This document shows, piece by piece, positions 766 through 31,470 of a DNA stretch of 64,000 nucleotides. Numbering within the stretch: the first letter of the stretch is position 1; each line of letters begins with the position of its first letter. This DNA comes from Bilabrum cf. latius (Eukaryota): NCBI GenBank assembly GCA_965178125.1, contig OZ237741.1, positions 1 to 64,000 of the forward strand, written 5' to 3'. A program made the position numbers and the translations under genes. The notes beneath the pieces were generated by a model. It did no database searches. It was not told where the DNA came from and was given only the letters and a program-made list of their open reading frames with translations.

Positions 766-2334
766 ATGGCCGCCGCAAAGAGCTACAGCGTCAAGCACAC
801 CAGCAAGTCTCGCCCTATCGTGGCCGCCCTAGCTTCAGGCGTCGCCACGTCCGCGGCCAAGCAGGTCCTGCTGATCTCCCTCGTGGGCCTCCACCAAGAC
901 TGCGGGTTGCTCTGCGGGTCTACCGAGCACTACAAAGGGACCAAGAAGGCGGGCATCAAGGCATGTGTGGATGCCATCCTGGCGCTGGATGAGTCGAAGC
1001 TGCCACCTGGCGTGCTAAATGCGCTGAACCGCCGCCTGTACCCGGCCGCATCAACCAGCTCCGGCTCACCAGGCTTCAGGGTGATGAAGCAGCTGCTCAT
1101 GGGCCTGCGCGAGTGCGACTACTCGGTGTCCAAGAACCCGTGGTTTAAGGCAGGCATGGACGGGCTACGGAAGACCCACAAAGACACAGTTAAGTTCATC
1201 TGCGACAACGGAGCTGGAACGGCCTCTGTGCGTGCATGCGGAGGCATGAAGGCTGTGCTCCAAGACGTGTTCGACGGGCCGATGGAGTACTCTGCTGGAC
1301 CAGCCGCAGGAGATCAAGGTGGCGCTTCGGGAGCCGATACAACTGCGACGGGTAGTGCACCGCGTTCTCGGAAGGGCAAGCGGAGACCCATGTACGATGA
1401 AGACGACGACGAGGATGGCGACGACAACGGCGCCTACACGGCCCGGAGAGTACGGGGTGAGCCGGATTCCGACAACTCAGAGTCCAGCGGATCGGAGAAG
1501 AGCGAGCATGGTAGTGTCTCCAGTGGGTCCAGCGACTCATAGACCGATCGAGCATACGCCGATCTTCTCAGGGCCAAGCGGGCGGCGGAGGCTAAGAGAA
1601 AGGACAAGGCCAAGGCCAAGGCCAAGGCCTTGGCAAAGGCTGCGGGCAAGTCGAAGGGCAAGTCGAAGGGCAAGGCGATGGGCACGGCTGCCGAACCGGC
1701 AGAACCAGAGGGCAGGGAGTCGGATGAAACCGTACCTCGGTCTAAGAGGCAGCCCAAGCGATCGGCCGTCCTCGGACGAGGCTACGGTGGAGGAGCTGGC
1801 CGCGCCATTGACCAGGAGAAGAGGGGAGCAAGTGGCGCAAGGAGTGGAGCAGCAGCATCACTGCCTCGACAGGACTCTGAGGAAGATGAAGAGGAGATCG
1901 GTGGTCGGTACCACGCAGACGCAGCCGGAGAGGAGGACGAGGATGAAGCTCCGATAGGGCTCGTGCAGCAGGACGAGGAGGATGGGGACGAGCTGGATGA
2001 GGAAGAAGAGAACGAGGCCCAGAACCAGCAAGACGACTCTGAGAACGACGGTGGAGTGGAGGACAACGGCTTCACCGACTAGCAGCGGCACCTGGTGGAC
2101 CGCATTCTCACTGCCTGCGATGACACCGCGCTGGGCGTCAGCCGGACTGTCGACGACATGGTCGAGGACGTGCAGGAAACAATTGCAGAGAGGGACCACG
2201 GATTGGGCATGCTCGCAGACCTGATGACGGCCCTCGAGAAGACGGCGGAAGGAGATCTCAATGCGGCAGACGTGGACGCTGTGGAGGCGCTCCTGGCAGC
2301 TGTCGGTGCGGAACCCTCCTCCGATGACGAGTGA
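766..2334 (+). CDS. Hypothetical ~522-aa protein with Lys-rich and acidic low-complexity C-terminal half (needs TAG=Gln)
   Basis: ORFs 82-1542, 1630-2082 and 2095-2334 are in one frame, separated only by TAG (1540, 2080); the gene ends TGA. ATG 766 follows a plausible splice acceptor (ccgcag). No domain recognised. Confidence 0.7.
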
Positions 2335-2585
2335 AAAGCAGCCAGGCGGATGGCAATTGAGGTCAGTGGCAGCTGGGCCAGCTTGTGAGAGGAGCTTGCC
2401 AAAGTGCCAGCCAGTGACCCGTTAGGACGGAATAGTAGGAGCCAAGAGGCATTCTGTTTAGTCTTGGCTGTCAGCCGATGAATACCTTAAGTCAAAGCAA
2501 TCCATCAATCGAATACAACGGTCATGTACACAATACCCATTCTACAATTGACGAATCCACAATGCATTCTACAGAGACAAGCAAT

Positions 2586-11855: not shown

Positions 11856-12197
11856 ATGCTCCGCGCAGCCCGTCAATCTATGCGAATCGTCTCTACTGTG
11901 CGCGCTTGCAGGCTTCCAGTGTACCGCCTGCCGGCTGCATACATGTGCACGGAGGTCAAGCTGCCCAAGAAGCGTCCGGGGTACCTCTCGGGGTACAACA
12001 TGTTCGTGAGGGAGCAGTCAGCCACCATCCGCGAATCTTCGCCAGAGCTTACCCAGACGGAGATCATGCGCAAGGCTGGAGCCGCCTGGAAGGCCCTCAG
12101 CGAGGCCGACAAGGAGCCTTACCAGGCCCAAGCAAAGGCAGACCGCCCCCGCATCGACGCTCTTCGCGCGAAATGGGACGAGGCAAACGGCAAATGA
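11856..12197 (+). CDS. Single HMG-box protein with probable mitochondrial presequence
   Basis: PKKRPGYLSGYNMFVRE...EIMRKAGAAWKALSEADKEPY HMG-box pattern; Arg-rich, acid-free N-terminus. Confidence 0.85.
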   Translation: MLRAARQSMRIVSTVRACRLPVYRLPAAYMCTEVKLPKKRPGYLSGYNMFVREQSATIRESSPELTQTEIMRKAGAAWKALSEADKEPYQAQAKADRPRIDALRAKWDEANGK

Positions 12198-12566
12198 GTT
12201 TGAGGATTACATTGCTGAAGACTAACGCGCGTGTAGGCGCGCGTGCATGTCACAGGACCGGGCGCCGCGTGTCTCAGGTCGTGTGCGATCTAGGATCGCA
12301 CATTCAGATTCGGCCGCGCAAGGGTTGGTATGGCCTTGAAGCCCGTGTTTGTATGTTGCCGTAGTAAATATATTTGATGTTTTGTCGGTCATTCCATGTG
12401 TGATCTGGCTAACGACTATTGAGCCTTGGTGAAGCTCGGCAAGCAGACAGAAAAACAAAGAATAGTGCCCACGAACGTCCCCGTGCAGCAGCAGCAGCAG
12501 GCCACGCAATGAACCCGCCAAATATAATCCAAGATCACAAAGTCAGGCGTGTGAGGGCCAACCTCA

Positions 12567-13720
12567 TCACCCAATGTAGCTTGCCTCGAGGTCATCGAAC
12601 GATGGCGCTCCGCCAGGCGGTGCCTGCTTGGCCCCGTGGCCGCCAGACCCTCGCGCCTGCGACGCGCGCGACTGGGAGGCAAAGTAGGTCATCGAGTCGA
12701 TTCCCACGGGACGAGGGGGGAACTGCCCGCCCTGGGCAGCCCCGGCCGGAACAGATGAGCTGCGGGCACCCGCCCGCCCAGGCGCCGGTGACGCGCCACC
12801 GCCGGCCTGGCCTGAGGCGGCGGGAGCCACCGGGGCGAACGCGTCGGGGGCCGCGAACGGATCCACGTCCGCTTCGTCTGCTCCTCCGTTGGACGCCGCG
12901 CCTCCCACGTCGCTCTGCGCCCCCGCGCCGCCGCCCTGCGACTGGGAGGGCGTCGACGCGCCGCCGTCGGTGCCGTCCAGCATGCCGCGCAGGTGCGCCT
13001 CCATCTCGGCGTCGTCGTCGTCCTCGCCGCCCTCGTCCCCATCAGCTGCACCTCCCAGCAAATCATCGTCGGCATCCTCTACGACAGCCTGCGGTGCGGG
13101 CTCTGCCACGGCCGCCGACCTGCTCGGCCGCGCGCCGCTGGAGGGTCGCGGGGCCGCGGCCGATTGGGAGGCAGGGGCCCCGGAGGGGCCCCTGCCAGGA
13201 GATGCTGGCGGTGCGTCAAACGACAGTCTTGATACTTTAGCGACAATCGCCTTCCTATACACGGGCACGGGCGCTTGCATGTCATCTACGTCAACCCAGA
13301 CTGCGATGCAAGGATAAAGTTGCGCCAACGGCTTGATGCTTGGGAGGTCCTGCTAGACATGGATATTCGACTCCATTCTTCAGTAAGTTCTCGTGTATTG
13401 AGACAATGGTGCACCAAGAATAACGCTCCCCTTCGCCACAGACCTTGGCCCGTGCGAGGCCCTTCCACGCGTGACCTAAGGTCCTAATATCGAAGCGAAG
13501 GCTACCTGGCGCATTGCTCACCATATGTCTGGCCGTACTGGGCTTTGAAGCGGAAAAAATACGTCCCGGGAAGGGGGAAGTGCTTCACAACATGATGTAA
13601 TCGCAGGGCGCCCGAAGCTGGAACCGCAAACACATTCGGGTGCGCCTCTGAATCTCCATCCTCCGGAACAAAGTATCGGATGTACGTTCTAGCAGATTTA
13701 GAGCGCTGTGCCTGCGACAT
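12567..13720 (-). CDS. DIX-like domain protein with low-complexity tail; intron 13301-13521
   Basis: IRYFVPEDGD..HPNVF..LRLHHVVKHFPLPGTYFFRFK..VWVDV..PVPVY..IVAKV; the GTGAGC..GCAG intron keeps frame; ends TGA. Confidence 0.75.
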
Positions 13721-13825
13721 GTAATGCCCTCGGGGGTGGTAATGATGCCTGAACTGGCCTTCCGTGCGGCTGCCAATAAAAAATAAAAATGACGATTGCC
13801 AAAAAAGAAAAAAGAAAAGGAAGCT

Positions 13826-13862
13826 CACCCCCTGCGGGTCTCGATCCCGCGGCCTGACGATT
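13826..13862 (-). pseudogene. 3' half (positions ~37-73) of a disrupted tRNA-Lys(CTT) gene, with Pol III terminator
   Basis: Minus strand reads AATCGTCAGGCCGCGGGATCGAGACCCGCAGGGGGTG followed by T-runs (13801-13818). It matches the intact tRNA at 14531-14603 except in the anticodon stem. Confidence 0.9.
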
Positions 13863-14023
13863 GTGGACGAGGAACACATGGCTCTCTCCACTGTCTACAG
13901 CTAAGCTGACGATTGTGTAGAAAGACCCTCCCACTGTCACGAGCAGGCTCGGTTGCACGACGCAAGCGGCTCACATGCCCGCCCAGCCAGCACCCTCAAG
14001 AGTGGCTGTGGCCCACTGGCAGT

Positions 14024-14400
14024 GGCATAGAGGCATAGAGGCATAGAGGCATAGAGGCATAGAGGCATAGAGGCATAGAGGCATAGAGGCATAGAGGCAT
14101 AGAGGCATAGAGGCATAGAGGCATAGAGGCATAGAGGCATAGAGGCATAGAGGCATAGAGGCATAGAGGCATAGAGGCATAGAGGCATAGAGGCATAGAG
14201 GCATAGAGGCATAGAGGCATAGAGGCATAGAGGCATAGAGGCATAGAGGCATAGAGGCATAGAGGCATAGTGGCATAGTGGCAGTGGCAGTGGCGGTCGG
14301 TGGCAGTGGCAGTGGCAGTGGCAGTGGGTGGCAGTGGCAGTCACAAACCAGATGGCAGTGGCAGTGGCAGTGGCAGTGGGTGGCAGTGGCAGTGGCAGTC
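14024..14400. repeat. (GGCATAGA)n, ~31 copies, followed by degenerate (GTGGCA)n
   Basis: Directly visible. Confidence 0.97.
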
Positions 14401-14530
14401 ACAAACCAGAAACAAACGCGGCTGCACGCCTCATCTACCAGCTGCATGTTTACGTGGTTGGCCGCGATCGAGCCGATCTGCCGGCCCTTTTTCGGTAAAA
14501 TGCAACAGCGAAATCGGAGCAAAAACGATT

Positions 14531-14603
14531 CACCCCCTGCGGGTCTCGATCCCGCGGCCTAGCGATTAAGAGTCGCTCGCTCTACCGACTGAGCTAAGAG
14601 GGC
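14531..14603 (-). tRNA. tRNA-Lys(CTT), intact, 73 nt
   Basis: GCCCTCT TA GCTC AGTCGGTA GAGC G AGCGA CT CTT AA TCGCT AGGCC GCGGG ATCGAGA CCCGC AGGGGGT G folds as a cloverleaf; TTTTT lies 5 nt downstream. The T-loop has A54. Confidence 0.92.
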
Positions 14604-15519
14604 TTGTGCTTCACCGGATAATTCATAATATCTAGTAATAAAGTCTGTTCAAGTTTGTATGAATCATGAGCTTTCTCGAAGGAGTAGTATCATTTCTGTC
14701 TGTATGCGGACCAAGCACTTGATTAATCTCGACTTTTACCTGATTACACGATGAAATACTCTTCATTATGTTATGTTGCTTGCTGGTGGATTGCATGTAA
14801 TTCGGCGACAGCTGGTGCTTGAAAGTGAGAAGTAGCTGGTTCGATCAGCAACATGCGCGATACGTCGCAGTGCCATCATAGTAGACGGAGTCAGCTTAGG
14901 ATTTGGGTTAGGGTTAATCGGTCTCTAGTGCGCTATATTGCCTTCTATGACCACTACATTGCTGTGGCCTGTGCAGGAAGTGGCAGTTTCAAGACGATCC
15001 ATCGCGACGCGATCTTGTGTGCCCAGAGTCCCGGACGGCGCGCAGTTTGATTCATCTGCATGTGTCAATGCTACGGTAGCTTGGATACGGGCTCAGATGA
15101 AGCTGCCACCATCGGAGCGAAGCGTGCACATTGATGTGTATTGGCCTATGCTCCATACGTCAACGTCACCGATTACCCTGCTGCCGCACAGTCCCGGGCA
15201 GCAGCGGACGGGACAGTCTCACGTTAGCTGCTGTTTACTTTGAGGCTTTACTACTGCACATTCTGAGATTTCCAACGTGTCAACCTCGTTCCACGGTCAA
15301 GGTTGCTTCCGTTCTCCTGTGAGCCAGACACCAGCTTTATTGGCAATTAGAAAGGAATTCTTACAGTGGAAGATGGCCACTCTATACTTGCTGACACCGC
15401 TTGCACATCACAGAGCTCGGTTCAGTGCGGTAGTGCGTATCGATTGACAATTGGGCAGATTGCTGCAGGGCGACTGTACATGTAGTCCAGTGTTGCAGTG
15501 TTGCAGTGTTGCAGTGCCT

Positions 15520-15808
15520 GTGGTCCGGGAGGGGCAGTGCTGCAGGGGGCAAGTGGTCCGGGAGGGGCAGTGCTGCAGGGGGCAAGTGGTCCGGGAGGGG
15601 CAGTGCTGCAGGGGGCAAGTGGTCCGGGAGGGGCAGTGCTGCAGGGGGCAAGTGGTCCGGGAGGGGCAGTGCTGCAGGGGGCAAGTGGTCCGGGAGGGGC
15701 AGTGCTGCAGGGGGCAAGTGGTCCGGGAGGGGCAGTGCTGCAGGGGGCAAGTGGTCCGGGAGGGGCAGTGCTGCAGGGGGCAAGTGGTCCGGGAGGGGCA
15801 GTGCTGTA
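15520..15808. repeat. 33-bp minisatellite (~9 units), preceded by one solitary copy of the 103-bp repeat (15424-15520)
   Basis: GTGGTCCGGGAGGGGCAGTGCTGCAGGGGGCAA tandem array. Confidence 0.95.
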
Positions 15809-16348
15809 GTGCATGTTGATCGATGTACTTGGACATCAAGATCAAAGCGACGGGGAGCAGAGGTGAGCCGGAAGACGAGGCGGGCGCAGGAGGACAGGAG
15901 ATGGAGAGGAACAAGAGGGGGACACCGGCACAGGTGACGATAGTGCGGTGTCAATGGTTTAGAACACAACTGGACGGAGAGGGTTCCAGGTGCCAGGTAC
16001 ATGGGAGACGCGAGTTGCAGCGGGCTGCATGGCCAGCCGCGCACAGAAGGCCAACAGGTGGGTGGATGGACGGTGCGCATGGCAGGTCGGCCAGGACCTG
16101 TTCGTGCAAGCTGAGAAGATAGGGTCAAGGTGGCGATGCAGGGAGCAGCGCGCACGTACCCTAGGGCGGGGAGCGGGGACGGAAAGCCATGCAGCAACGA
16201 GGCCAGTCGACTTGCATTCGGAAAGTGGTGTGTACATTCGTCGTATCCAAGCTTAACCACATTCGGGTGGGCTGCTGAGCAACCAGTCGGTCGGAGTCCG
16301 CGGGACCTGGGACAGGAATTTTTTATTTGAATTGGGGCCAGTGTGGTT

Positions 16349-18065
16349 GTGGTCCAGGGCGGGAGTGCGGTAGTGCATATCGATTGACGATTGGGCAGAT
16401 TGCTGCAGGGCGACTGTACATGTAGTCCAGTGTTGCAGTGTTGCAGTGCCTGTGGTCCAGGGCGGGAGTGAGGTAGTGCATATCGATTGACGATTGGGCA
16501 GATTGCTGCAGGGCGACTGTACATGTAGTCCAGTGTTGCAGTGTTGCAGTGTTGCAGCGTTGCAGTGTTGCAGTGCCTGTGGTCCAGGGCGGGAGTGAGG
16601 TAGTGCATATCGATTGACGATTGGGCAGATTGCTGCAGGGCGACTGTACATGTAGTCCAGTGTTGCAGTGTTGCAGTGTTGCAGTGCCTGTGGTCCAGGG
16701 CGGGAGTGAGGTAGTGCATATCGATTGACGATTGGGCAGATTGCTGCAGGGCGACTGTACACGTAGTCCAGTGTTGCAGTGTTGCAGTGCCTGTGGTCCA
16801 GGGCGGGAGTGAGGTAGTGCATATCGATTGACGATTGGGCAGATTGCTGCAGGGCGACTGTACATGTAGTCCAGTGTTGCAGTGTTGCAGTGCCTGTGGT
16901 CCAGGGCGGGAGTGAGGTAGTGCATATCGATTGACGATTGGGCAGATTGCTGCAGGGCGACTGTACATGTAGTCCAGTGTTGCAGTGTTGCAGTGTTGCA
17001 GTGCCTGTGGTCCAGGGCGGGAGTGAGGTAGTGCATATCGATTGACGATTGGGCAGATTGCTGCAGGGCGACTGTACATGTAGTCCAGTGTTGCAGTGTT
17101 GCAGTGCCTGTGGTCCAGGGCGGGAGTGAGGTAGTGCATATCGATTGACGATTGGGCAGATTGCTGCAGGGCGACTGTACATGTAGTCCAGTGTTGCAGT
17201 GTTGCAGTGTTGCAGTGCCTGTGGTCCAGGGCGGGAGTGAGGTAGTGCATATCGATTGACGATTGGGCAGATTGCTGCAGGGCGACTGTACACGTAGTCC
17301 AGTGTTGCAGTGTTGCAGTGCCTGTGGTCCAGGGCGGGAGTGAGGTAGTGCATATCGATTGACGATTGGGCAGATTGCTGCAGGGCGACTGTACATGTAG
17401 TCCAGTGTTGCAGTGTTGCAGTGTTGCAGTGCCTGTGGTCCAGGGCGGGAGTGAGGTAGTGCATATCGATTGACGATTGGGCAGATTGCTGCAGGGCGAC
17501 TGTACACGTAGTCCAGTGTTGCAGTGTTGCAGTGCCTGTGGTCCAGGGCGGGAGTGAGGTAGTGCATATCGATTGACGATTGGGCAGATTGCTGCAGGGC
17601 GACTGTACATGAAGTCCAGTGTTGCAGTGTTGCAGTGCCTGTGGTCCAGGGCGGGAGTGAGGTAGTGCATATCGATTGACGATTGGGCAGATTGCTGCAG
17701 GGCGACTGTACATGTAGTCCAGTGTTGCAGTGTTGCAGTGTTGCAGCGTTGCAGTGCCTGTGGTCCAGGGCGGGAGTGAGGTAGTGCATATCGATTGACG
17801 ATTGGGCAGATTGCTGCAGGGCGACTGTACATGTAGTCCAGTGTTGCAGTGTTGCAGTGCCTGTGGTCCAGGGCGGGAGTGAGGTAGTGCATATCGATTG
17901 ACGATTGGGCAGATTGCTGCAGGGCGACTGTACACGTAGTCCAGTGTTGCAGTGTTGCAGTGCCTGTGGTCCAGGGCGGGAGTGAGGTATTGCATATCGA
18001 TTGACGATTGGGCAGATTGCTGCAGGGCGACTGTACATGTAGTCCAGTGTTGCAGTGTTGCAGTG
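16349..18065. repeat. 103-127 bp tandem repeat (~16 units) with a variable number of internal GTGTTGCA 8-mers
   Basis: Constant ~87-bp body plus 2-5 copies of the 8-mer per unit. Confidence 0.96.
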
Positions 18066-18120
18066 GAGAGCGGTAGCAATTTATATTGTATGGGTACACA
18101 GGCAATCAGGTTGTCTAAGA

Positions 18121-21100
18121 TTAATGCCACAACTCGCGGGGTGGCGAGGCTGCGGTGGTCGCTGGGCCAGCAGCAGTTCTGTGGACATTTCTTGCGCAAG
18201 TACTTTGGCCCTCAGGCGTCCGGCGCTGCTGCAACCCGAGAAATGCGGTCATTCGCATCTGACCAGGACGTCCAGCAGCAATCTACGTCTTTGACTTGCG
18301 GCTTGTCTTTGTTTGGTTGGGGGGCGGGACTGCAGGTGTATCGTGCGTCCCCATGTTGCTTCTGCTTCGTGGAACTGTATCGGCCGATCCGCCAACTCGC
18401 CTACGCTTTGCTGGGGGCTACTCCCTGTCACGACGTGGAGGTTGGAAGCCTTCTCTTGACTGTCCAGTCCCCTTAGTAGGAGCTTGCATGTTTGATCGAT
18501 GTTTGTCGGATTCTTGGCGATGCATGGACGACGCCGCTGGTCCGCCACCACCGCTAGTCTGAAGCATGTCGCCACCCCTGGCCATTTGCGCGGCCATCTG
18601 CGCTGGAGTAGCCCGAGCCATGCCGAGCGCGGTGCCACCCTGGGCTTGCTGCTGGGGGGCAGTGCGTCCGGTCACCCCACCCAGTATCTGCAGGGCACTG
18701 CGACGTTTGCGGCTCTTCCCGGCTGAGCTCGCGGAACCTTTGCTCGACAGGTTGCTGCTCGCAGACGCAGGTCCGCTGGCGTACTGCAGTTGGCGGGCGT
18801 GGGGCAAGCAGGCACCCCTTTGCTGGTCGTCGGACTCTTGGCGATGCATGGACGACGCCGCTGGTCCGCCACCACCGCTAGTCTGAAGCATGTCGCCACC
18901 CCTGGCCATTTGCGCGGCCATCTGCGCTGGAGTAGCCCGAGCCATGCCGAGCGCGGTGCCGCCCTGGGCTTGCTGCTGGGGGGCAGTGCGTCCGGTCACC
19001 CCACCCAGTATCTGCAGGGCACTGCGACGTTTGCGGCTCTTCCCGGCTGAGCTCGCGGAACCGTCAGGGGGCTCATTACCGGAATCTCGGGCGAGCAGGC
19101 AGCATAAACGGACTGCCCTTTACCGGCTCTTCATTACTCCTGGCATCATTAAAACATGCTATAATTAATCGTAGCTGAATATTAATGAGCTTGATCTCAT
19201 TTAATGGGTGTTAATATTCGTTTGACTTTGTAAATTTACGGTAAGGCGAGGCTAACTTTTGGTGCTGCTTCGTAGCCAAGCGTCGGTCACCTTCAACGTG
19301 TCAATTGAGCTCATTTCGATAATTCAAGCAGCTTTATGGGTAAATATACATAGATTCTGGCTTGTCGTGGTATCCGTCAACCCATTGATATTCCATAAGT
19401 ACCGTATTTCCTGAGCAGGCAAGGCTGGACAAGAGTTGCAAAACCTCGCTATAGCAAGGCACATGTCCTGGGCGAATTGAACCTTATGGTATCAATTTTC
19501 ATTAAGTACTTATTAGTCTTGCGGGGTATGAGCATGTGCAGCATACTTTTTCTGGCACTGGCACCCTGGTAAGCTATCGACCAGTGGTTCGCTTGTTGCG
19601 TCAGCCTCCGGGCTTATTTGAAGCATAACGGCTGAAGCAAAGCCTGCAACACATATAATACTCATATTGGCGTAAGCATGCAGTGAGTGCGGTCAGGAGA
19701 TGTCAAGCAAGGTTGCCACGGACTTGGCGGAGGGTTGAGCAGTTGTGGAAGGGAATTGGAGCATGGCAAGCCCCACGACCCACAGCCCTGTGTATGCCCC
19801 GGTAGCGTAACCACAATCTCTTTGACATATTTACTGCCATTTGAGCATGACTGTCTTTGCGGCTTTGGTGTATGAGGCTGCACGGCAGGGGCTCGGCAAC
19901 TGCGGGCTCAGGCAGCTACTGCTCATGACACCACCACTGTTCAGACCAAAAGGCAAGGCTATGGATCGCGTGGCTAGCAGAGGAACGCTGATGACATTTT
20001 ATGGTGTTAAGTGTTGAGAGCACCGGTCCAAATCTCAGTATAGCATAGGAGGCCCAACCACACGGAAGAGCTGTGACACGTCGCGGGGGGCACCTTGGGG
20101 GGCAGGTCCATGCATCAGATATAGTACGGTTCTGATAGTCCCGCCTTACCAGATGGTTGAAGCCATAGTATTGCTGAATTAGAGGGGTTGTCGTCTGTTG
20201 ATCGTCCCATGAAATGGTCGTGCAACCCTGAGAAGGAGGCGGACGTGCCAAGCCTGCTAGCAACTGCGCGGGGGGCTGCAAGCTCTCAATTAGCAATAAA
20301 CAGGCTAAAGTAGCTACTTGCAGTCTTAAATAGTAACAGATGATGTCTGTGGGGCCTGCTAGGTGTTGTAAGTTAATATGGGCCGTTGTGGCAGCTGGGA
20401 CGCAGCTGTATTCAGCCTGGGGTCGAGGCAAACTAGGGCCCTCATGTAGAGTCGGAGGAAACTAGAACATGCACTGTGCAACCGCAGCAGTTCAACAAGG
20501 TCCTTTGCATTAGATTACTGCTACGGAAATTCATCTTAGGTCTCATGTAAAGGATGTATGCACACTATCTTTGGACAGTGCAAGTTGCTTGCCAGTCACG
20601 CTGCATCAGACGAATAACTGGATCCACATGCCCATAAAGCTCATCGTTAATACTTCATATATAAATATCACAAAATTGAGAGTATTAACCAGCAGGTATG
20701 CCGAACACGCATTGCAGGCAGAAAAAACTACAACCAGACCATGCAGCCCTCTGGCAGAAACCGGGAGGCACCAGGCTCGTGGTTGCGAGCAGCAAGCACG
20801 TGTGGATCTACAATGCTCTTTTGTACGGATAACATACTGTAGCCGCCTGATGAGGCCAATGGGTGCACAGGAAATAGGATGCAGGTGCCTCGAAAATTGC
20901 TCACAGCGGCCCGCCCACGCTCTTCACCAAACCCAGGCATCAATAACTGCAATTCGTGCAATTTCAGACCGCCATTAGTATAATTATAAATAGATTTAGT
21001 GTGAGAGAGAAGATCATGCCGATTCATCGAGGAATGAAAGCATGAACGCTATCTGAAATATATCCTCCTATGCGACCTGCCGGGGCGAATTTCGTGAATC

Positions 21101-24100
21101 CCGTGCTCGGTGGCCGACAGCTTGAACTGCACCCCCTGTATCTTCGTCAATAAGTACGTTGCAGACTTGAAATTTGCACAAAATACTATTAATGAAGTAA
21201 ATATCATATTACATTAGTTATTATTCTCTTTAATGGTTTTCAATGGTTGGAACACGGCCCCTGAAAATAGGCCCAATCGGCGATTTTTATTCCGGTAATG
21301 AGCCCCCTGACGGAACCTTTGCTCGACAGGTTGCTGCTCGCAGACGCAGGTCCGCTGGCGTACTGCAGTTGGCGGGCGTGGGGCAAGCAGGCACCCCTTT
21401 GCTGGTCGTCGGACTCTTGGCGATGCATGGACGACGCCGCTGGTCCGCCACCACCGCTAGTCTGAAGCATGTCGCCACCCCTGGCCATTTGCGCGGCCAT
21501 CTGCGCTGGAGTAGCCCGAGCCATGCCGAGCGCGGTGCCGCCCTGGGCTTGCTGCTGGGGGGCAGTGCGTCTGGTCATCATCTGCATGATGTCCGGATGC
21601 CTGCGGCTCTTCCCGGCTGAGCTCGCGGAACCTTTGCTCGACAGGTTGCTGCTCGCAGTCGCAGGTCCGCTGGCGCTCTGCAGAGTCTCCTTGAGTGAGT
21701 CAGGTAGGTGAAGCTCGGGATTCAAACTTGTCGCATACGCTGAAATTTTCAGCGCCCGCCCAGCCGGGAGTGCAAAAACAGCTCTGTACTCGTCTAGTTT
21801 AGCAGCTGCGTTTGAAGCCGCAACATGTGTAGCTGAAGCCTCCGGCATGCACAAAGAAAGCCGCATGAGCACGCATGTCCCGCCTGCGAAACCGGTCCCC
21901 GCTACGAGTGCATGCAGTGCAAGGGCGTTAGCTGCCCCCTACGCCCTGAGGTTCACTCCATCGTGAATATCACGCGCATTATTGGGTCCAGCCAGGCTAA
22001 CCTTGCCATGCTTGGTAAGGCGGCCGATGCTCGCGATCTGCGGCTTCCCAGTTTGCATGGGCGACGCTGATGCCGAAGATCGTGCCGCCACTGCCGTCGC
22101 CGCCGAAGATGATGAGTCGCGCTCGCTGGAAGGTAGTGATGTAACGCGCAGGTCAATAACCTGCACCTATACGGTCTATTGCAGCGCCGCGCGGGGTACA
22201 GCGGGTCGTTCGAGGCAGAGCTGGTCCGGGATGTCCTCGACGTTGGTTGACACGCTGACAGAAGACGAGGAGGCAGCGGTCTGTGGCTGCGATGCATCTG
22301 AGCTTGCAGCCGATGAGGCAGCGGTCTGTGGCTGCGATGCATCGGAGCTTGCAGCCGATGGGGCAACGGTCTGTGGCTGCGATGCATCGGAGCTTGCAGC
22401 CGATGAGGCAACGGTCTGTGGCTGCGATGCATCGGAGCTTGCAGCCGATGACGCAGCATTGGCCGCATCAGGCTGCATTGGTGCCTTAACAATACCTGCG
22501 ATCTGCTTGATCGTCATGCGGATGATATTGCCTGCTCGATCCTTACTCTTTGCGTCGACCTCTTGGAAGACTGCGTTGGCCAGGACAAGCCTGGAGTTGA
22601 AGAACTTGTCAGTGGTAACCGTCTGAGCGCTTCTAGGATGCAATACCTCCTACGTGTGTCCGTGGAGCTGCCGTAGCGCATCGGTAGCTCGATCGCGGGG
22701 GTAGTCCTTACTTGCAACCTCCGCAACAGTCTTTGGCAGCGTGGCACAAGCCCAAGTACCTGCACAAATGTGTTGGAACTGGGATGTCATGTCAAAGCCT
22801 GCGATCACCTTGCGAACAGTGTTCTGGGGGGACTTCTTAATGCTGTCCCTCAGCCAACTGACAGTGTTGTTGCCCGACTTGCCATTGGTGATAATGGCGT
22901 GGAGGTTGCGCACTGCCTCGTAGGCCGGCTGAGTCCAGGCATCCCCAGCCATGCATTTCGAGAGGATTGCAGCTTCCTCGACGCTGAGCACATCTTCATC
23001 AGCCAAACTGTGATTTAGACTGGCCTGGAAGTGCAATGCGATGCGCTGTGATACCGAAGGTGGCTTGGCCCCCGTCCCTCTCGCCCGTATCAGCTTGCTG
23101 ACCAGAGTCAAGAGAATAGCGACGCGCTCGACGATCTCATGCGCATCTGCGCCCCTGCTACTCGAGGCTGTGGCGGCACCAGGGTTAGAAGTGGCAAGCG
23201 CTGGCCGGACTGCCGTGCTTCGCTTCTTCAGCTGCATCGCAGCCTGCAGGTCTTCCCCGATTTTTCGTTGCAGGGCGGGTCGCGATGTCAGCATCTGAAC
23301 CTACGCCTCCCCAGCCTACGATTGGTGAAGCAAGCAGTGGGACAGGGCGGCTCGACCGGTACTATGGGAGTAGTGCCCATCTGTGCTGGCGCGCACCATA
23401 CTGAGCACCATGTGTCTCCCGCCTTCCTCCCACGCTGTTGGTTCTGGGTATCCGGGGCTCCAGCTCTTGCCCCCCATACCAACAAGAGGTCCGCTCGAGA
23501 GGAAAGCTTGGCTAATGGCGTCTCTGGCTGACTCTTGGTATAGGCATTGCATGGCATCCGTGTGATCGGAGCGGGCAATGATGACGCCGAGAGCCTCATT
23601 GCCAATGCGCGTCGCGAGCAGGGCACGGCCAATCCGGCTCGATGAGTCCACGCTGCACAAGGACGTACCCCGGGCTCCGACCCTGAAGGAGTTCATTGGA
23701 AGGGCATCACTCGTCTCATGATCATCAGTGTCGTCGTTTGGCGTTGCCTCGCCGATACTGTTCACCGCTTGTGTGAAGCCTTTGATTGGGTCGACCATAC
23801 CCTCAGGGTCCCAGAAGATTCGAGCACCAGCGAAGCACATACCAGCTTTGTCTTGACACGCACCAATCGCTCGAATAAGAGCAGAGCCAGCCTGAACGCA
23901 TCGGTTCCACGATGAATCAAGTGCTACGTGTGGTTCAACGGCATTTCTGCTTTCTACCGTTTGCTTGCCTCGCGCAGCGTTTGACGACCGGACTCCGCTC
24001 AGCATTGCATGTGCATCGCACAAGCAGCTCTCAAGCAGCTCACGGAACAGATGATGGCACGGACTGGCATGAGTTCCAGTGCGCCCAGCTCGGTTGACAA

Positions 24101-26279
24101 GTCTGAGCAGCATTGGATGCTGCGTGCTCACACGCACTTCCTTGGGAGTGTCGTTGCAGGCCTGCCCGACAACGGCTACGAGCTGGTGCTTCTGACTTCC
24201 AGAAAACGCTTCACGTGCTTTTTCAATGGAGTCTAATGTCTCCACGGAGACAATGCTGGACCTTGCACCCCCGGCTGTCGCAGACTTAGCCGAGCCGTCA
24301 GACTTGCTGGCGTGGCTCATTCCCAGTGGGTTGAACGCTGCAGTAGCAGAGGAACCTGGTTGCCTGGGCCGCGAGACAATCGTTGCACTGGTACTCGGTG
24401 CCGACTCCTTGCCAATTACTCGGGAAAGAGTTGTGCTGGAATTGCTAACGTGATCTACTAGCGACTTGAACAGCTCACGCATTGCACCAGCTGTGGCGAC
24501 ATCTTGGCGCATCCCACGACCCATAAAGTCATCGTGCGCTGCTACACGGCACGGAGGCAAGCCCTCTGCCGTTGAAACCTGAACGTTACGAACCGCGTGC
24601 TCGCAAGGTGGAGCGCCGCTAGTGCTTGATGGTGCAGTAGAGGATGAAGCCGCTGCTAGCCGACCGCCTCGACCGCTGGTCTCGGCCACTGAGCACTGGA
24701 CTACTTGAGCACACAAACGTCTAAGCTCGTGCCTCCGAGGCTGAATTGTCTTACAGACGCTGTTCATGTTTGCCATCATGCTTGCCTTTCCGGTCTTCTC
24801 GACGTGCGCGGCCGGACCTCTCTGCAGCACCATTGCCGGCCTGCCTGTTTCGGAAGGGAGCTTTCCGTCTTGGCCTGCTCGTGATGCAGATCCTGCAGAT
24901 TCAATCCCTGAGATTTGGCGTGGTTGACCCATAGCTGTCCAAGCCGCGGACTCTGGAGCATCGGACGGAGGGTTGATGGTCAGGCATCGGCCTGCTGCGG
25001 CCTCTGCCCTCTGGAGCGCACCGTCTGAGGTCAGGCGCTCACCGTTGGCGTACCAGTCCCACCCTCGGGCTGTAGGATGGTGTGCAGAGAGTGCTGCCTG
25101 TTGCTGTTGGCCCGTGGCTAGTAGCATGTTGTGAATCAAGGCACCAGCAGCAGAAGCTGGTTCGGCCTCGGTGCTGCTGCGCACTGCCAAAGCCCTACTC
25201 GCCCTGTGCACGTTTGAGCTCTGCGTGCTCATACCCACTTCTGTTGTTTGAGTATTTGGCCTCCAACATAGACCCCTTACTCGAAGTTGTCCTGTCGATG
25301 CACTCATCTTCATGCTTCGGGCAACCGCGGTAGCGGCGAGATCCTCGCTGGATGGGACTGGCTAGCCGCTTGCGGCTGCTGCTTGGCCGACTTGGCTCGT
25401 TGAACTGGCGTATTGCCTGATCTACTGCAGGGATTGTACCAAGCCGTCGTTTAAGGGTAGCACCATTGCTGCCTGCAAGTAAACACCAGACCCCCTTCCG
25501 TCGATTGCTGTGTAGTCCTCGAGCTTGATTTGGAACGGATGCTGATGGGCCGCAGTGCTGCCCTTGGAAGCGACTACGGCAAAAGCCTATTCGCGAATCC
25601 GTGCCATTGCATAGACAGCTGCAGCTCCACGGGCTGCATGTACATGCAGCGCCCACATTGCCTGTCCCATTTCTCTGCTGACACGGCCGAGGCGTCGTAG
25701 GCTCGAGAGGGCCCTTGCACAGCCAGGTGTGCCAAAGTGTAGCTCTACGTGCACGGCTCTCACGCCATATGTGGAGTTGACTGGTCCCATTCGAATATGG
25801 ACGCTGCTGCCAAATTCTGAGCAGACCTTCAGTGGTGTCGTTCGGCTCTGTAGCGAAGCTGCCAGCTCGGCCGCTTGGACTGGGTCGATGTCGGCTGCAC
25901 GTGTTGAGGCAGCCTTGTCATCGCTGACCCCAGAGTCTACTTCTCCAGGCTGTTCAGCCAAGCTTGTGCCGAACGGGCTGTGCTGGCCGGTGGTCCTTTG
26001 ATCGTTTGTGAGCTAGCTGGAGCGCGCCATTCGACTTCCGGGCACCTGCTCGGAACTGCCCAGCAGTGACGCCGCGACAGAGATTGAGCCCTTGAGGGGA
26101 TGCTATGACTCTTTAATAGATGAAGACACCCTCGAAGCAGTCACAGGCTATATACTTGGGCTTGTGCGGGCATTCAACCCTCCCCTGATTGATGATGTGT
26201 GCGCAGCCTGTGTCGACCACGTCGAAGCGGACGACGAGAAAGTTGGCTACATCGCTCCCCCCTGTGAGGTCATAGGCAT
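18121..26279 (-). CDS. Giant intronless orphan gene (~1967 aa reconstructed with TAG=Gln), interrupted by a TIR element at 19061-21313; as it stands it terminates at TGA 21240 (~1679 aa)
   Basis: ORFs 25587-25961, 23316-25313, 22650-23294, 22176-22643, 21939-22166 and 21240-21872 are in one frame, broken only by TAG, and open back to ATG 26279. Removing 2255 bp restores the frame into ORF 18418-18999, which reads on to TAA 18121. Confidence 0.75.
19061..21313. mobile_element. 2.25-kb terminal-inverted-repeat element, apparently non-autonomous or decayed
   Basis: 25-bp perfect TIR CCGTCAGGGGGCTCATTACCGGAAT (19061-19085; reverse complement at 21289-21313). The empty site CGGAACCTTT is seen in sister repeat units. 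TSD is AA, or GGAACC if the TIR is 23 bp. Confidence 0.88.
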
Positions 26280-26311
26280 ACTGTAGAGGGATGTTCTTGT
26301 TATTTGTGGCA

Positions 26312-27289
26312 GGCCTGACGATTAAGAGTCGTCCGCTCTACCGACTGAGCTAAGAGGGCTTGTGGTCATCTATCCGTCACACCATATCCAAATGAAGCTT
26401 GCAGCGCTGATGCTGCCATGCACTGTCGATGTCTTCGCATCGATTCAGAAGGAGTAACGGCCAACGGTAGCGTATTTTGGGCTTTATTTGAAGCTGCTGG
26501 AATAGGAAAACGTCTGCTGCACTTCTCAACTTCAAGCCAGCACCTGCTCTTCAATCGGATCGCAGTAGTTCCGCTACGCCACCGAGACGGCCGCGGCGCC
26601 ACCAGATTCAACTTTCGCGAACCAAGTCCCGACAGCAGCTGACCGCCCTCGCGCGACTTCGGAAACAAGCGGCTAGATCGCTCGCATTCCTCCAGTGCAT
26701 TACGGCGGAATGCGCCGCCTGGCCCGACGAGTTGCTGTGCATGGTGTGTGACAGTGGCGCTCTCGGCTCGGCCGGGTAGCTGGGGCGACTTCGGGCTTGA
26801 CACGGTGCCGCGAGCAAGGGTTTGCGCCAGGCCAGACTCTTGTCTCGCTAGTTTCTGTGCCAGGAAGCGAGCAGGCTCCCGGCTCCGGCGGCGGCGAATT
26901 CGTGCTTCGGCAGCGCGTGGCTCCGTCGGTCGGCAGCGACGGGAGCGCGGTCGTCCCGCTGCCCAGGCGGGACTCGTCTGGCGCTCTCGGCTTCGACGAG
27001 ATCCGATTCAAGCTGCAGGATGACAGCGTCGGAGATCTGCTCGCGCGAGCCGCGGAGCGGCTCGGGGTGGAGGCTGGCAGTTGCGCGGTGCGGTTCGCCT
27101 CGGACGGGTCTCGCGTGGCCCGGAGCTTGCCGCTTCGCCGGCTGCTGCAGGTGGGCTGGAGGCTGGCAGCGGCAGACACGAGCACTGAGTTCACGCCCGC
27201 CCTCCACGTGATCGTCGGCGGGGAGGACGGCTTAGGCGACACATCAGCCCGGCGGCTGCCCGCCACGTTCACCACCGCCGAGCTGCCTC
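26312..27289 (+). pseudogene. 978-bp near-identical duplicate of 28051-29028: tRNA-Lys 5' half (26312-26359, minus strand), MCU upstream region and truncated MCU 5' end
   Basis: Offset 1739 bp; CGA>TGA nonsense change at 26749 (codon 14); homology stops at 27289. Confidence 0.92.
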
Positions 27290-27887
27290 AACCCGCGGGT
27301 GGTCAGACTAGTGGTTACACTCCCTGAAACTGCCCGCGGGACCACACTGTCTGGACAATGTTGATTTTAGTATTGTGCCCGGGTCATAGTTCTGCTAGCA
27401 TGATGTTAATAGCACGATACGGTAGGACGTAGGCGTTCGGGATTAGTTGTGGTAGCGTGAAGTCCGGAAACGCTCCATTGGCCAAGTGGGGCCTACAGCA
27501 TAATGAGTTTGTGGCTTCCCTTGTTCGCTCCGGACCCCCCGATGGTGATCCACGCCCCCATTACGCCCCTTTAAGCAGCCAATTGAATCAGTTTCGGAGG
27601 AATGTGTCACGTTTCGACAATTTAGATATCATTAGGGGATACTCAGCAGGGCCTCTGGCTGCACCGCTCCGGATGGCGTGCTGAACAGCTGCTGGGCTCG
27701 ATTCTGAAGCCACTAAGAGGAGTGGGTGGTAGAAAAGCCGCTGATAGCAATTTGAATGAGTAGTCGGTGCTAAGGGAGAGGATTTCAGGGCTGTCGGCGG
27801 ACACTTATTTGCAGTTTTAGCAGGAGATGTCCGCCTTCGTGCTCGGCAACTTCCGTGCAGTGGCACAGTTTCATACCGCTCTCACCA

Positions 27888-27937
27888 GCGGCCTGACGAT
27901 TAAGAGTCGTCCGCTCTACCGACTGAGCTAAGAGGGC
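27888..27937 (-). pseudogene. tRNA-Lys(CTT) 5' half, second copy (part of a 161-bp tandem duplication)
   Basis: GCCCTCTTAGCTCAGTCGGTAGAGCGGACGACTCTTAATCGTCAGGCCGC followed by non-tRNA sequence. Confidence 0.9.
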
Positions 27938-28048
27938 TTGTGGTCATCTATCCGTCACACCATATCCAAACGAAGCTTGCAGCGCTGATGTCCGCCTTCG
28001 TGCTCAGCGACTTCCGTGCAGTGGCACAGTTTCATACCGCTCTCACCA

Positions 28049-28098
28049 GCGGCCTGACGATTAAGAGTCGTCCGCTCTACCGACTGAGCTAAGAGGGC
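28049..28098 (-). pseudogene. tRNA-Lys(CTT) 5' half, third copy, contiguous with the intact MCU locus
   Basis: Same 50-nt sequence; it overlaps the 3' half at 13849-13862 by 14 bp. Confidence 0.9.
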
Positions 28099-28448
28099 TT
28101 GTGGTCATCTACCCGTTACACCATATCCAAATGAAGCTTGCAGCGCTGATGCTGCCATGCACTGTCGATGTCTTCGCATCGATTCAGAAGGAGTAACGGC
28201 CAACGGTAGCGTATTTTGGGCTTTATTTGAAGCTGCTGGAATAGGAAAACGTCTGCTGCACTTCTCAACTTCAAGCCAGCACCTGCTCTTCAATCGGATC
28301 GCAGTAGTTCCGCTACGCCACCGAGACGGCCGCGGCGCCACCAGATTCAACTTTCGCGAACCAAGTCCCGACAGCAGCTGACCGCCCTCGCGCGACTTCG
28401 GAAACAAGCGGCTAGATCGCTCGCATTCCTCCAGTGCATTACGGCGGA

Positions 28449-30023
28449 ATGCGCCGCCTGGCCCGACGAGTTGCTGTGCATGGTGTGCGACAGTGGCGCT
28501 CTCGGCTCGGCCGGGTAGCTGGGGCGACTTCGGGCTTGACACGGTGCCGCGAGCAAGGGTTTGCGCCAGGCCAGACTCTTGTCTCGCTAGTTTCTGTGCC
28601 AGGAAGCGAGCAGGCTCCCGGCTCCGGCGGCGGCGAATTCGTGCTTCGGCAGCGCGTGGCTCCGTCGGTCGGCAGCGACGGGAGCGCGGTCGTCCCGCTG
28701 CCCAGGCGGGACTCGTCTGGCGCTCTCGGCTTCGACGAGATCCGATTCAAGCTGCAGGATGACAGCGTCGGAGATCTGCTCGCGCGAGCCGCGGAGCGGC
28801 TCGGGGTGGAGGCTGGCAGTTGCGCGGTGCGGTTCGCCTCGGACGGGTCTCGCGTGGCCCGGAGCTTGCCGCTTCGCCGGCTGCTGCAGGTGGGCTGGAG
28901 GCTGGCAGCGGCAGACACGAGCACTGAGTTCACGCCCGCCCTCCACGTGATCGTCGGCGGGGAGGACGGCTTAGGCGACACATCAGCCCGGCGGCTGCCC
29001 GCCACGTTCACCACCGCCGAGCTGCCTCGGGGCTCGGGTGCAGCGCTGGGCTCGATTCGGGGATCAGTGGGAGGAGTGGACGGCCGCGGCGGGGAGGCGG
29101 TGGATGGCGAGCTGCATGCGTATTCGGTGCTAAGGGAGAGGCTTGCGGATCTGTCGGCGGACTCGCACTCGTTGCAGGTGTCTGCCTTCACGGACATGGT
29201 GCGGGCGGTGGCGAGGGAGCATTCGCTCGGGGGCATGCACGGGTCCAGCGCGTCAGCTGGTTCCGCCAGTGGGGTGGAGATCGGGGGGGAGTCCACGGAG
29301 GCCGATGTTCTGCTTGCACAGAGGTGGCTCGAGTGGCTGCAGGCAGAGGGGGTGGTCTACCACAGGCCTCTCTCGAGGGACGATGCCCTGCGGTCCACGC
29401 TCTTCCTCGTGCACGACGAGGCCGAGGTGGTGGTGGCGGGGGGAGGGGAGACGGAGGGAGGGAGGCTGGAGCAGCTGCTGACGGGTGCTCTGGACGTGGA
29501 GGGGCGGGCCCTGCAGGGTAAGATCGACGCCAAGCGAGACGAGCAGCGAGCGCTGGTGGATCAGCTGCAGGGCATGGATGAGCTGGCCGCCTCTCTGGAC
29601 CAGCAGGCCGCGAGAGACCTGTGGCTGCGGGCCCTGGGGACGGGGGGCTTCCTGGTGGCGCAGTATGCCTTCATCTTCCAGCAGGTGTACGTGACCTCCT
29701 GGGACGTGATGGAGCCCATCTGCTACTTTCTGTCCACGGCGTACTCGGTGCTCTTCTTCGGGTTCTTCCTGGCCACCAAGAGGGAGCCGCAGCATGGGAA
29801 CATCTGGCAGCACTTCTTGCAGAAGAGGAGAGCCAAGCTGCTGGAGGCAGCCACTAAAATGACCGTGGAGGCCTTCGAGGCGGAGCGCGAGTCCCTCCAG
29901 CGGCAGATCATGACCCTGCGGACGGAGGAGCAGCTGCTGGACGCGCGGGAGCAGGGGGCCATCCGGGCGGCCGAGGCTATTCGGGCGGCCGAAGACAGGC
30001 TCGGCACGCGAGATTAGAGCTAA
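28449..30023 (+). CDS. MCU: Mitochondrial calcium uniporter
   Basis: Coiled coil-TM-SWDVMEPICYF-TM-coiled coil; Arg-rich presequence. TAG 30015 is followed by AGC TAA, so the true stop is probably TAA 30021-30023. Confidence 0.9.
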
Positions 30024-30172
30024 GAAGCGTAGGTTTGGCGACAGTGAAGCATGTTTGAGCATATATGCACACGCACTTGCATCTGGCGGCCCAGTGGACC
30101 GGCCGAGCTGCTGCATTTCCGGTTTGCGGAGTATCGGTACCCCCGCCACGTCGCCACTCACTACTGTTCATA

Positions 30173-31470
30173 ATGGCAGCAGTAGCAAGCAGCGGCGCTT
30201 CCGGTTCAAAGATCGCTGTGTCTGAGGATCCAGTGAAGCCTCTTGCTGGCACTTTTGGCTCTCTCGACATCGTGAAGGGGCCTCTTGGCCAGCCTGCAGT
30301 GAAGCTCAGCTCCGGGCACGTGATGCCCCTGCTTGGACTTGGAACGTAAGTTTTTGTCTGCTTCTTTTTGGGATCAGGTGTTATTCATGAAATGTTATTT
30401 AACCAGCACTGAACGTCGTGGTTTGGTCGAAGATGTGCTAGAGTCTAGTGTTCTGTTGAGCACCGTGATCAACCTGTTGGCTGCTGCATCCCACAACCGG
30501 CGCCGACAAACTTCATCCGTTTTCAAGGTAGCGCATTCTTTGAAATCAAGTATTTGTATCTTGCAGCTGGCGCTCTGAGCCTGGAGTCGTAGGAAAGTGC
30601 GTGCAGCAAGCTGTGCGGGCCGGATACAGGCATCTCGACTGTGCCCAGATATACGGTAACGAGAAGGAGATCGGGGACGCCCTGCAAGAGCTGTTCAAGG
30701 AGGGCGTGGTGAAGCGGGAGGAGCTTTTCATTACCAGCAAGATCTGGAACACGAACCACAAGCCTGAGCATGTCGAGGCAGCGGCCAAGTCGATCATTGC
30801 TAACCTCCAGTGCGAGTACCTGGACCTCGCTCTGGTGCACTTCCCCATCGCATTCGAGTTCGGTGGAGACGCCACCAAGCCGGGAGTGAGCAAGAAGGAC
30901 GACAAGGGCCGCATCGCGCTGGACGACGAGACCCCCTTGCACGTAACGTGGGGCGCCATGGAGAAGCTGGTCGAGGACGGGCTGGCGAGGTCCATCGGCA
31001 TCTCCAACTACAGCCTCAGGGAGACGAGGGACTGCCTGGCCTACACGAGCAAGACCCCCCCCGCCGTGAACCAGCTGGAGGTGCACGCGCACTTCTCGAG
31101 GAGGAGCCTGGTCGACTACTGCAACGAGAGGGGTGTCTCCGTGACGGCCCACACCCCCCTGGGCGGAGGAGCCGCCAACAAGGAGCTATTCGGGACCGTG
31201 TCTGCGCTGGAGGAGGAGTCCGTGAAGGAGCTGGCCGCCAAGCTGGGTCGGTCCCCCGCTCAAGTGCTGCTCCGCTGGTGCCTGCAGCGCGGCATGGTGG
31301 TCATCCCCAAGAGCACCAAGGAGGCCCGCATCATCGAGAATGGGCAGGTCTTTGACTTTGAGCTGGACGAGGAGGCCATGGCTGCGCTGGACAAGCTGGA
31401 CAAGGGGCCTGGGGCCATGGGCAGGACCAACAAGCCGCACGCATTCTGGGGCTGGGACGTGTTCGCCTGA
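30173..31470 (+). CDS. Aldo-keto reductase; intron 30346-30566
   Basis: MPLLGLGT|W, GYRHLDCAQIYGNE, LFITSKIW, YLDLALVHFP, SIGISNY, VIPKS; GTAAGT..TTGCAG intron; ends TGA. Confidence 0.95.

Follow-up and report, generated by a model that had tools for sequence, protein, structure and literature searches.

The 64,000-nt window analyzed here (positions 1 to 64,000 of contig OZ237741.1, Bilabrum cf. latius) contains a tRNA-Lys(CTT) gene split into a 3' part and a 5' part, which lie at opposite ends of an interval of 12.4 kb, measured from the 3' part to the first 5' part (hereafter the island). In our analyses we focused on the origin of this arrangement, which is ascribed below, with about even confidence, to a one-off event of insertional rearrangement in which the tRNA gene broke and its repair left a short duplication. 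The following features define the locus:

12570-13729, minus strand: left flank gene, with its 5' end facing the tRNA and a tblastn match to frames of the related contig L001
13826-13862, minus strand: 3' part of tRNA-Lys(CTT), from A37/38 of the anticodon loop through the discriminator
13849-13862: left copy of the duplicated core GCGGCCTGACGATT, with 12 nt shared with 26312 and 14 nt with 27888 and 28049
14531-14603, minus strand: intact paralogous tRNA-Lys(CTT) with an AGCGA/TCGCT stem and its own T5 terminator (ARAGORN; Rfam, 63 bits)
26312-26359, minus strand: 5' part, copy A (tRNA positions 1-48)
27888-27937, minus strand: 5' part (tRNA positions 1-50)
28049-28098, minus strand: 5' part (tRNA positions 1-50)
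28197-30023, plus strand: gene of the mitochondrial calcium uniporter (MCU), right flank (Pfam PF04678, E 6.7e-20)

The split tRNA gene and the same locus in a relative

The sole intact tRNA gene of the window is the tRNA-Lys(CTT) at 14531-14603 (ARAGORN; Rfam cmscan, 63 bits), and cmscan additionally reported three truncated tRNA matches (26256-26359, 27877-27937 and 28038-28098; 30.6-33.3 bits). Four partial tRNA-Lys copies are present, all on the same (minus) strand as the intact gene. Over 31 of 31 bases the 3' part matches the intact gene's 3' end exactly, and it then continues into the anticodon-stem variant TCGTC; T runs are found at 13800-13822, which is 3' of this part on the minus strand. 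A 12-nt exact word, GGCCTGACGATT, is common to the 3' part (at 13851) and the 5' part at 26312, and a 14-nt exact word, GCGGCCTGACGATT, is common to the 3' part (at 13849) and the 5' part at 28049. These words bear out the sequence-only reading of this DNA, made earlier, in which the 3' half at 13826-13862 and the 5' halves at 26312, 27888 and 28049 overlap by 12 or 14 bp. The same reading held that the joined halves give a complete tRNA-Lys(CTT); indeed, after the 3' part and the 28049 5' part had been joined across the core by a script, ARAGORN called a 73-nt tRNA-Lys(CTT) gene. The 3' part and the 5' parts both have the GACGA/TCGTC anticodon stem and the intact interior gene has AGCGA/TCGCT, the two variants differing by a double compensatory change that exchanges two base pairs. 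The chance that two independently truncated fragments would match in order, strand, overlap (0-20 nt) and stem variant is estimated, by argument and without simulation, at a few percent.

The left junction carries a second duplication. The exact 12-nt direct repeat CTGACGATTGTG occurs at 13854 and 13906 (13854-13917), across the tRNA/island junction, and brackets 40 nt; the expectation for such 12-nt repeats in 200 bp is about 0.001 (our estimate). Since this repeat includes the junction, it points to a local duplication made at or after insertion. In split or permuted tRNA genes that are expressed as halves, each half has a promoter of its own, and complementary leader and trailer sequences unite the two. 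The regions adjoining the two halves, aligned locally in direct and in inverted orientation, revealed no complementary leader or trailer above shuffle level (scores as high in 179 and 183 of 1000 shuffles). Such a gene also fits poorly here because the halves share 12-14 nt and do not meet at position 37/38. Two short words were seen near the tRNA pieces. The leader CACAA is also present at 14604-14608, by the intact gene. The motif TGACGATT has 22 occurrences against 0.96 expected, of which 16 represent one word of the 103-bp satellite described below and 3 lie in the 5' parts; another copy, at 13790, is placed just beyond the T runs trailing the 3' part, and no claim is drawn from the satellite copies.

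The site had been described earlier as lying between a DIX-like gene and MCU. The identification of MCU was confirmed by Pfam, and the likeness of the left gene to DIX is by eye only, with no Pfam family found for this gene. A scan of metagenome contigs with the MCU protein yielded 80 loci, one of which, L001 (7541 bp), belongs to a close relative: the MCU proteins of the window and of L001 share 291 identical residues in a 483-column alignment. The other 79 loci (L002-L080) are distant MCU genes with 26-49% identity, and a Protein Atlas search with MCU returned MCU clusters only.

L001 is collinear with the window on both sides of the split gene, its positions 48-1143 corresponding to the left gene and 1551-3044 to MCU. 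In the left gene, tblastn matched L001 910-1143 (minus strand) with window 13729-13541 (74.6% over 63 aa), L001 579-872 with 13313-13185 (72%) and L001 48-401 with 12869-12570 (47%). Beyond MCU, L001 3800-4738 corresponds to the aldo-keto reductase gene at window 30544-31467 (76%), and the match runs on to about window position 33987. The spacer between the left gene and MCU measures about 400 bp in L001 and contains one intact tRNA-Lys(CTT) (1223-1298) with no tRNA fragment. The anticodon stem of this tRNA is of the GACGA/TCGTC form, and its sequence agrees with the 5' parts in 48 of 49 positions and with the 3' part in 34 of 37. There are thus about 14.9 kb (13729-28626) in the window against 0.4 kb in the relative, and, because the flanks of L001 are adjacent around a single intact tRNA gene, the window interval is extra DNA. 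To judge from these alignments, about 14.9 kb is extra in the lineage of the window, bounded by two parts of the orthologous tRNA type.

Ends, content and copy number of the island

No recombinase, transposase, reverse transcriptase or HUH family was found in the 27 frames in or beside the interval (Pfam; E up to 0.01-1), in agreement with the earlier view that no DDE transposase is recognizable here; this negative holds at the level of sequence profiles, with no Dada-specific profile among them, so a very distant DDE relative could escape it. A repeat search detected no inverted repeats at the island ends, and the only inverted pair within 12000-31000 belongs to a nested transposon. There is no poly(A) or simple-repeat tail at either end of the island, and the likeness between the two ends is not significant.

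Copy number was assessed from four sequencing runs (X1-X4), the only ones found to contain the sequence, all of one sample and one study and probably the source of the assembly, by comparison with unitigs covering 18200-29800. In run X1 the unitig depth of 22422-26341 is 37.6, against 35.7 for the flank 28999-29800, and the same ratio was obtained in X2-X4; the equal depth indicates that this part is single copy. The whole of 18200-29800 is single copy apart from the nested transposon, with 2x depth over the 978-bp duplication described below. The unitig 22422-26341 runs 30 nt past the island/tRNA junction (26311/26312), the unitig 27260-27878 carries the end of copy A, and no joints were seen in the unitigs of this range. 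In run X2, a loose end of 23 letters ahead of 28049 revealed that the split variant also occurs in the reads as an intact tRNA. Further loose ends (28038-28105) lead to tRNA-Lys(CTT) loci with different flanks and the shared 5' leader ACCACAA.

Besides the intact tRNA gene, the island has the following content:

13957-14410: microsatellites, (GGCATAGA) in 32.5 copies and (AGTGGC)n
15520-15806 (within 15424-18138): satellite with a 33-bp unit, 8.7 copies
16214-18138: satellite with a 103/111-bp unit, about 16 copies
18124-26321, minus strand: giant gene, interrupted by a transposon with terminal inverted repeats and ending in C-terminal 324-bp (108-aa) repeats
19056-21317: nested multi-copy DNA transposon of 2.26 kb, with terminal inverted repeats at 19061-19085 and 21289-21313; its target duplication (CGGAACC) measures up to 7 bp

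The earlier description of the interior as satellites, one giant orphan gene and a tRNA is accurate for the satellites and the tRNA; the gene has real homologs (see below), and the nested transposon has to be added. The terminal inverted repeats of this transposon (CCGTCAGGGGGCTCATTACCGGAAT) are 25 bp long and perfect. Its unitig depth is about 4x that of the surroundings, with many variant letters and loose ends into other loci, and it is probably non-autonomous, because no transposase was recognized. It sits in the 324-bp repeats of the long gene, whose frame stays open when the transposon is removed by a script. The 103/111-bp satellite lacks stop codons in all three minus-strand frames, which gives rise to spurious open reading frames of 571-907 codons; each of its units contains the word TGACGATTG, which is also present at the tRNA/island junction. 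The whole stretch of 14-28 kb has 53-59% GC, against 60-70% outside.

The right end of the island is composed of repeated pieces of one junction:

26312-27289: copy A, which contains the tRNA 5' part with the flank upstream of it and the beginning of MCU; the identity to 28051-29028 is 99.7% and the unitig depth 2x
27686-27802, plus strand: decayed MCU fragment, 71% identical to 29041-29162 (E 4e-12), old and AT-decayed
27826-28147: 161-bp tandem of two units, each with 62 bp of unique sequence and, on the minus strand, a tRNA 5' part (27888-27937 or 28049-28098) with 49 bp of flank upstream of it

The identity between 26312-27289 and 28051-29028 extends over 978 bp, and this tract is followed by 396 unrelated bases and then by the 71% MCU fragment; the units of the tandem (27826-27986 and 27987-28147) are 97% identical. 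The three 5' parts, previously listed as separate pieces, are better regarded as products of later local duplication: the right junction and the 5' region of MCU were duplicated at least twice, so that, on this sequence comparison, the 5' parts are not independent and appear to be repeated copies of one junction. A recent gene conversion that ended where homology ends may account for the 99.7% tract, and the MCU 5' region looks like an old duplicate partly overwritten by such a conversion. The first ATG of the long gene, at about 26279, thereby has a copy of the MCU/tRNA spacer immediately upstream.

The long gene and the reading of TAG

The segment 21243-26321 of the long gene comprises 1693 codons with 13 in-frame TAG and is an open frame only with TAG as a sense codon; the giant gene of the sequence-only reading is therefore one frame only on this condition. 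After scripted removal of the transposon the frame is open for 1981 codons, to a TAA at 18121-18123. A phmmer search with the 681-aa TAG-free part against 1.84 billion representatives yielded three hits, one of them a spurious match to a bacterial repeat protein. The two real homologs (P0003 and P0004) match over 282 aa at 45% identity (E 3.6e-47) and over 105 aa at 39%, and the gene is thus not an orphan. The longest contig recorded for each is 3806 bp, so both probably lie on the same contig; two short fragments are what a standard-code gene caller would be expected to produce from a TAG-containing gene. A word-based homology search with the 681-aa part found nothing, as did a comparison of the whole protein with shorter proteins. 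Among viral contigs there were 0 loci matching the pattern of the long gene, and a PDB sequence search gave one irrelevant match (E 0.35). AlphaFold2, run on residues 660-1240 as a single sequence, returned a mean predicted local distance difference test score (pLDDT) of 36.8, too low for the model to be of use.

The composition of the long gene differs from that of its surroundings: its GC content at third codon positions (GC3) is 0.59, against 0.70-0.90 in neighboring genes, and its CAA:CAG ratio is 35:56, with far fewer CAA in the neighbors. Its use of TAG (13 per 1693 codons) is like theirs (5 to 15 per 1607-2267 codons in other long frames), which argues that the gene evolved under the code of this lineage and is not freshly foreign.

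Several observations concern the code itself, those from the window being indirect. Reading through TAG is what brings out frames of 2267, 1693, 1676 and 1607 codons in the window; if TAA or TGA is treated in this way instead, no frame exceeds about 1255 codons. Downstream of a frame of at least 200 codons, the next open stretch reached at least 100 codons in 15 of 41 cases for TAG, 7 of 39 for TGA and 1 of 10 for TAA. L001 has 7 in-frame TAG in its MCU and reductase genes (1599-4741), which end in TAA and TGA, and all three conserved TAG columns of L001 face Q in the window. The in-frame TAG of this relative justify the reading of TAG as sense. Judged from these frames and alignments, TAG appears to be a sense codon, probably for glutamine, with TAA and TGA staying stops. 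With TAG as sense, MCU would end at the TAA at 30021-30023 and not at the TAG at 30015, and a glutamine TAG would alter how every gene in this assembly should be called. Within the 2267-codon frame (38030-44833, TAG read through), 10-nt words recur at a constant offset of 2481 bp (41385-41642 and 43866-44123), which suggests a large internal duplication in this gene.

Origin of the island and comparison with known systems

The reading we favor, with a confidence close to even, is that the tRNA gene broke and that this break became the site of a one-off insertional rearrangement. The ancestor would have had a single tRNA-Lys(CTT) in a short divergent spacer between the left gene and MCU, and in the lineage of the window this tRNA would have been broken between the anticodon loop and the variable loop. 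Large DNA may then have been joined into the break by end joining, or by replicative repair filling a staggered break, which would leave the 12-14 bp direct duplication of tRNA sequence at the junctions. The inserted stretch now holds an intact paralog of tRNA-Lys along with a lineage-specific gene that is very long and fast-evolving. Later, the satellites would have expanded, the multi-copy transposon would have entered the long gene, and the right junction with the MCU 5' region would have been copied, giving rise to the old copy of approximately 71%, the 161-bp tandem and the 978-bp copy or conversion tract at 99.7%. The intact paralog could cover the function of the split tRNA, as could the split variant itself, of which the reads contain at least one further, intact copy. 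The exact repeat at 13854 and 13906, which includes the junction, fits templated patching at a repaired break. If the event was a one-off, the locus would be a clean natural case of a compact eukaryotic genome in which a tRNA gene served as the place of both a break and an insertion, with an ancestral-like state kept in a relative and a readable later history: satellite growth, a transposon, and junction duplications that copied the MCU promoter region beside the start of the long gene.

Several points weigh against this scenario. The tRNA of L001 is on the same strand as MCU and all pieces in the window are on the opposite strand, which means that L001 does not simply show the locus before insertion and that integration or excision by itself does not turn one state into the other. 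At least one further rearrangement separates them; a separate inversion could explain the orientation in the relative. The tRNA flanks of L001, compared with the window pieces in inverted and collinear orientation, gave only shuffle-level scores in all six comparisons (49 to 499 of 500 shuffles). The proposed check for an empty allele had a mixed outcome: the relative does have a single intact tRNA, but in inverted orientation, and no empty allele was seen in the one sample. Moreover, the break points of the tRNA at 26312 and at 28049 are no more than 2 nt apart, and the left junction has its second 12-nt duplication; such recurrence at a single site resembles specific cutting more than it does breakage at random. 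Measured against the functional sequence, both tRNA fragments are still letter-perfect and the adjacent MCU fragment is down to 71%, a combination for which one has to assume that the split is recent or that the fragments were converted by paralogs. The GC3 of the long gene, which is below that of all its neighbors, would also fit DNA of a different history.

A possible though improbable alternative is the decay of a tandem tRNA-Lys array around the long gene, in which one copy lost its 5' part and another its 3' part, and from which the relative lost the interval by recombination between copies. The five tRNA-Lys pieces on one strand within 14.3 kb, the intact gene only 705 bp from the 3' part, and the many local duplications of the region are in line with such decay, as are two weak remnants, one at 13863-13930 resembling tRNA positions 6-29 (1.3% tail, 25 of 1882 windows) and one at 26254-26273 resembling the tRNA 3' end (5% tail, 79 of 1580 windows). 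However, these remnants are not significant, their scores being reached in 41 and 98 of 1000 shuffles. In addition, two independent truncations would have to be complementary, with an overlap of 12-14 nt and the right order, strand and stem variant; the relative has a single tRNA without any fragment, and an inversion is still required.

We consider it unlikely that the island is a site-specific integrative or transposable element targeting tRNA-Lys(CTT) with a 12-14 bp stagger or att-like core, mobilized by the long protein or in trans, as the sequence-only reading had proposed. The clean complementary halves with their direct core, the unoccupied site in L001, the intact tRNA-Lys carried inside and the compositionally distinct long gene with a diverged homolog in another organism all agree with an element, and the near-identical breaks, the second left-junction duplication and the pristine tRNA fragments beside the 71% MCU fragment, already named as difficulties for a one-off rearrangement, count in its favor as well. 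Against these stand the lack of recombinase, transposase, reverse transcriptase or HUH families in the 27 frames, the lack of terminal repeats, the single-copy depth of 18200-29800 outside the nested transposon, the different tRNA orientation in the relative and the transposon insertion in the long gene itself. Furthermore, a long gene with only two real homologs among 1.84 billion representatives, both apparently on the 3806-bp contig, does not belong to a spread family. On these grounds the claim of a site-specific mobile element was not upheld. Its most specific form, which we hold to be doubtful in the extreme, would be an undescribed eukaryotic integrative element that recognizes tRNA-Lys(CTT), makes in it a cut, staggered by 12-14 nt, between anticodon loop and T stem, uses its long, helical, family-less protein as an integrase or nuclease, brings its own replacement tRNA-Lys, and left the repeated break point and the second 12-nt duplication as traces of repeated cutting. 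Should the recurring break point reflect a specific nuclease, this would be the first known eukaryotic element whose integration inside a tRNA gene leaves a long, att-like duplication.

An insertion of retroelement type (target-primed reverse transcription) or of a large cut-and-paste cargo transposon, with the enzyme since lost, is equally hard to credit. Target-primed insertions generate long duplications of variable length, with 12-14 bp within their range, and the nested transposon implies that transposases have been active in this genome. However, the island has neither a poly(A) or simple-repeat tail nor, in the 27 frames, a reverse transcriptase or endonuclease family, and its sequence is unique. 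A retrotransposon without long terminal repeats (non-LTR) in particular was rejected, as the frames contain no reverse transcriptase or endonuclease family and the ends no 3' tail. Very unlikely, lastly, is an assembly artifact in which two loci were misjoined through tRNA-Lys repeats and the true locus has an intact tRNA: the reads do hold an intact tRNA of the split variant (X2), all four runs are from one sample and unitigs are blind to long-range order, but the unitigs 22422-26341 and 27260-27878 carry the island/tRNA junction and the end of copy A, respectively, and the depth is as assembled, even between island and flank and 2x over the 978-bp duplication.

Among known systems, the closest outward resemblance is to prokaryotic prophages, integrative and conjugative elements and genomic islands, which integrate into tRNA genes by means of a tyrosine integrase. 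As in those islands, the interval is bounded by a short direct repeat derived from the tRNA gene (12- and 14-nt exact cores), the site is free in a relative, there with the tRNA in the opposite orientation, and a tRNA gene lies inside. Unlike them, it is found in a eukaryotic host, no integrase was recognized in the 27 frames and the target tRNA is restored at neither end; its core covers the variable loop and the 3' strand of the anticodon stem, and its interior holds satellites and one long, cellular-looking gene.

The TRE elements of Dictyostelium and the yeast elements Ty1/Ty3 insert beside, not inside, tRNA genes and encode a reverse transcriptase and an integrase; the island shares with them the tRNA gene as landing site and differs in lying inside it. 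In gene-dense genomes, tRNA genes serve as landing sites for these elements (PMC5006619). Polinton-like viruses of protists are integrated elements of 14-40 kb, some with tyrosine recombinases, that have long terminal inverted repeats, capsid genes and duplications of 4-6 bp or none; in cryptophytes, no tRNA genes were reported within 1 kb of their insertions (PMC12220804). None of the terminal repeats, capsid genes or 4-6 bp duplications so described is present at our locus.

Dada transposons insert inside specific genes for tRNA or snRNA (small nuclear RNA) of animals and of the protist Perkinsus, lack terminal inverted repeats, measure 4.7-11 kb, and have 6-7 bp duplications, a DDE transposase with a C/DxxH motif and several copies per genome (PMC3706591). 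This description confirms the earlier contrast of Dada with this locus by shorter duplications and a DDE transposase. The island is likewise a eukaryotic insertion inside a tRNA gene without terminal inverted repeats, but its duplication is 12-14 bp, no DDE family was found in the 27 frames, and 22422-26341 has single-copy depth. An alternative 6-bp duplication (TTGTGG, at 13861 and 26304) would need a pre-existing 18-bp duplication in the tRNA.

Theta-mediated end joining and microhomology-mediated replication produce insertional rearrangements at repaired double-strand breaks, with a short target duplication and templated filler. The island is unlike the usual products of these pathways in its size (above 12 kb), in its clean complementary tRNA halves and in the near-identical break at two junctions. 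It resembles them in that it would be a one-off, enzyme-less insertion of unique DNA, with a short duplication at the junction and a 12-nt junction-spanning repeat nearby.

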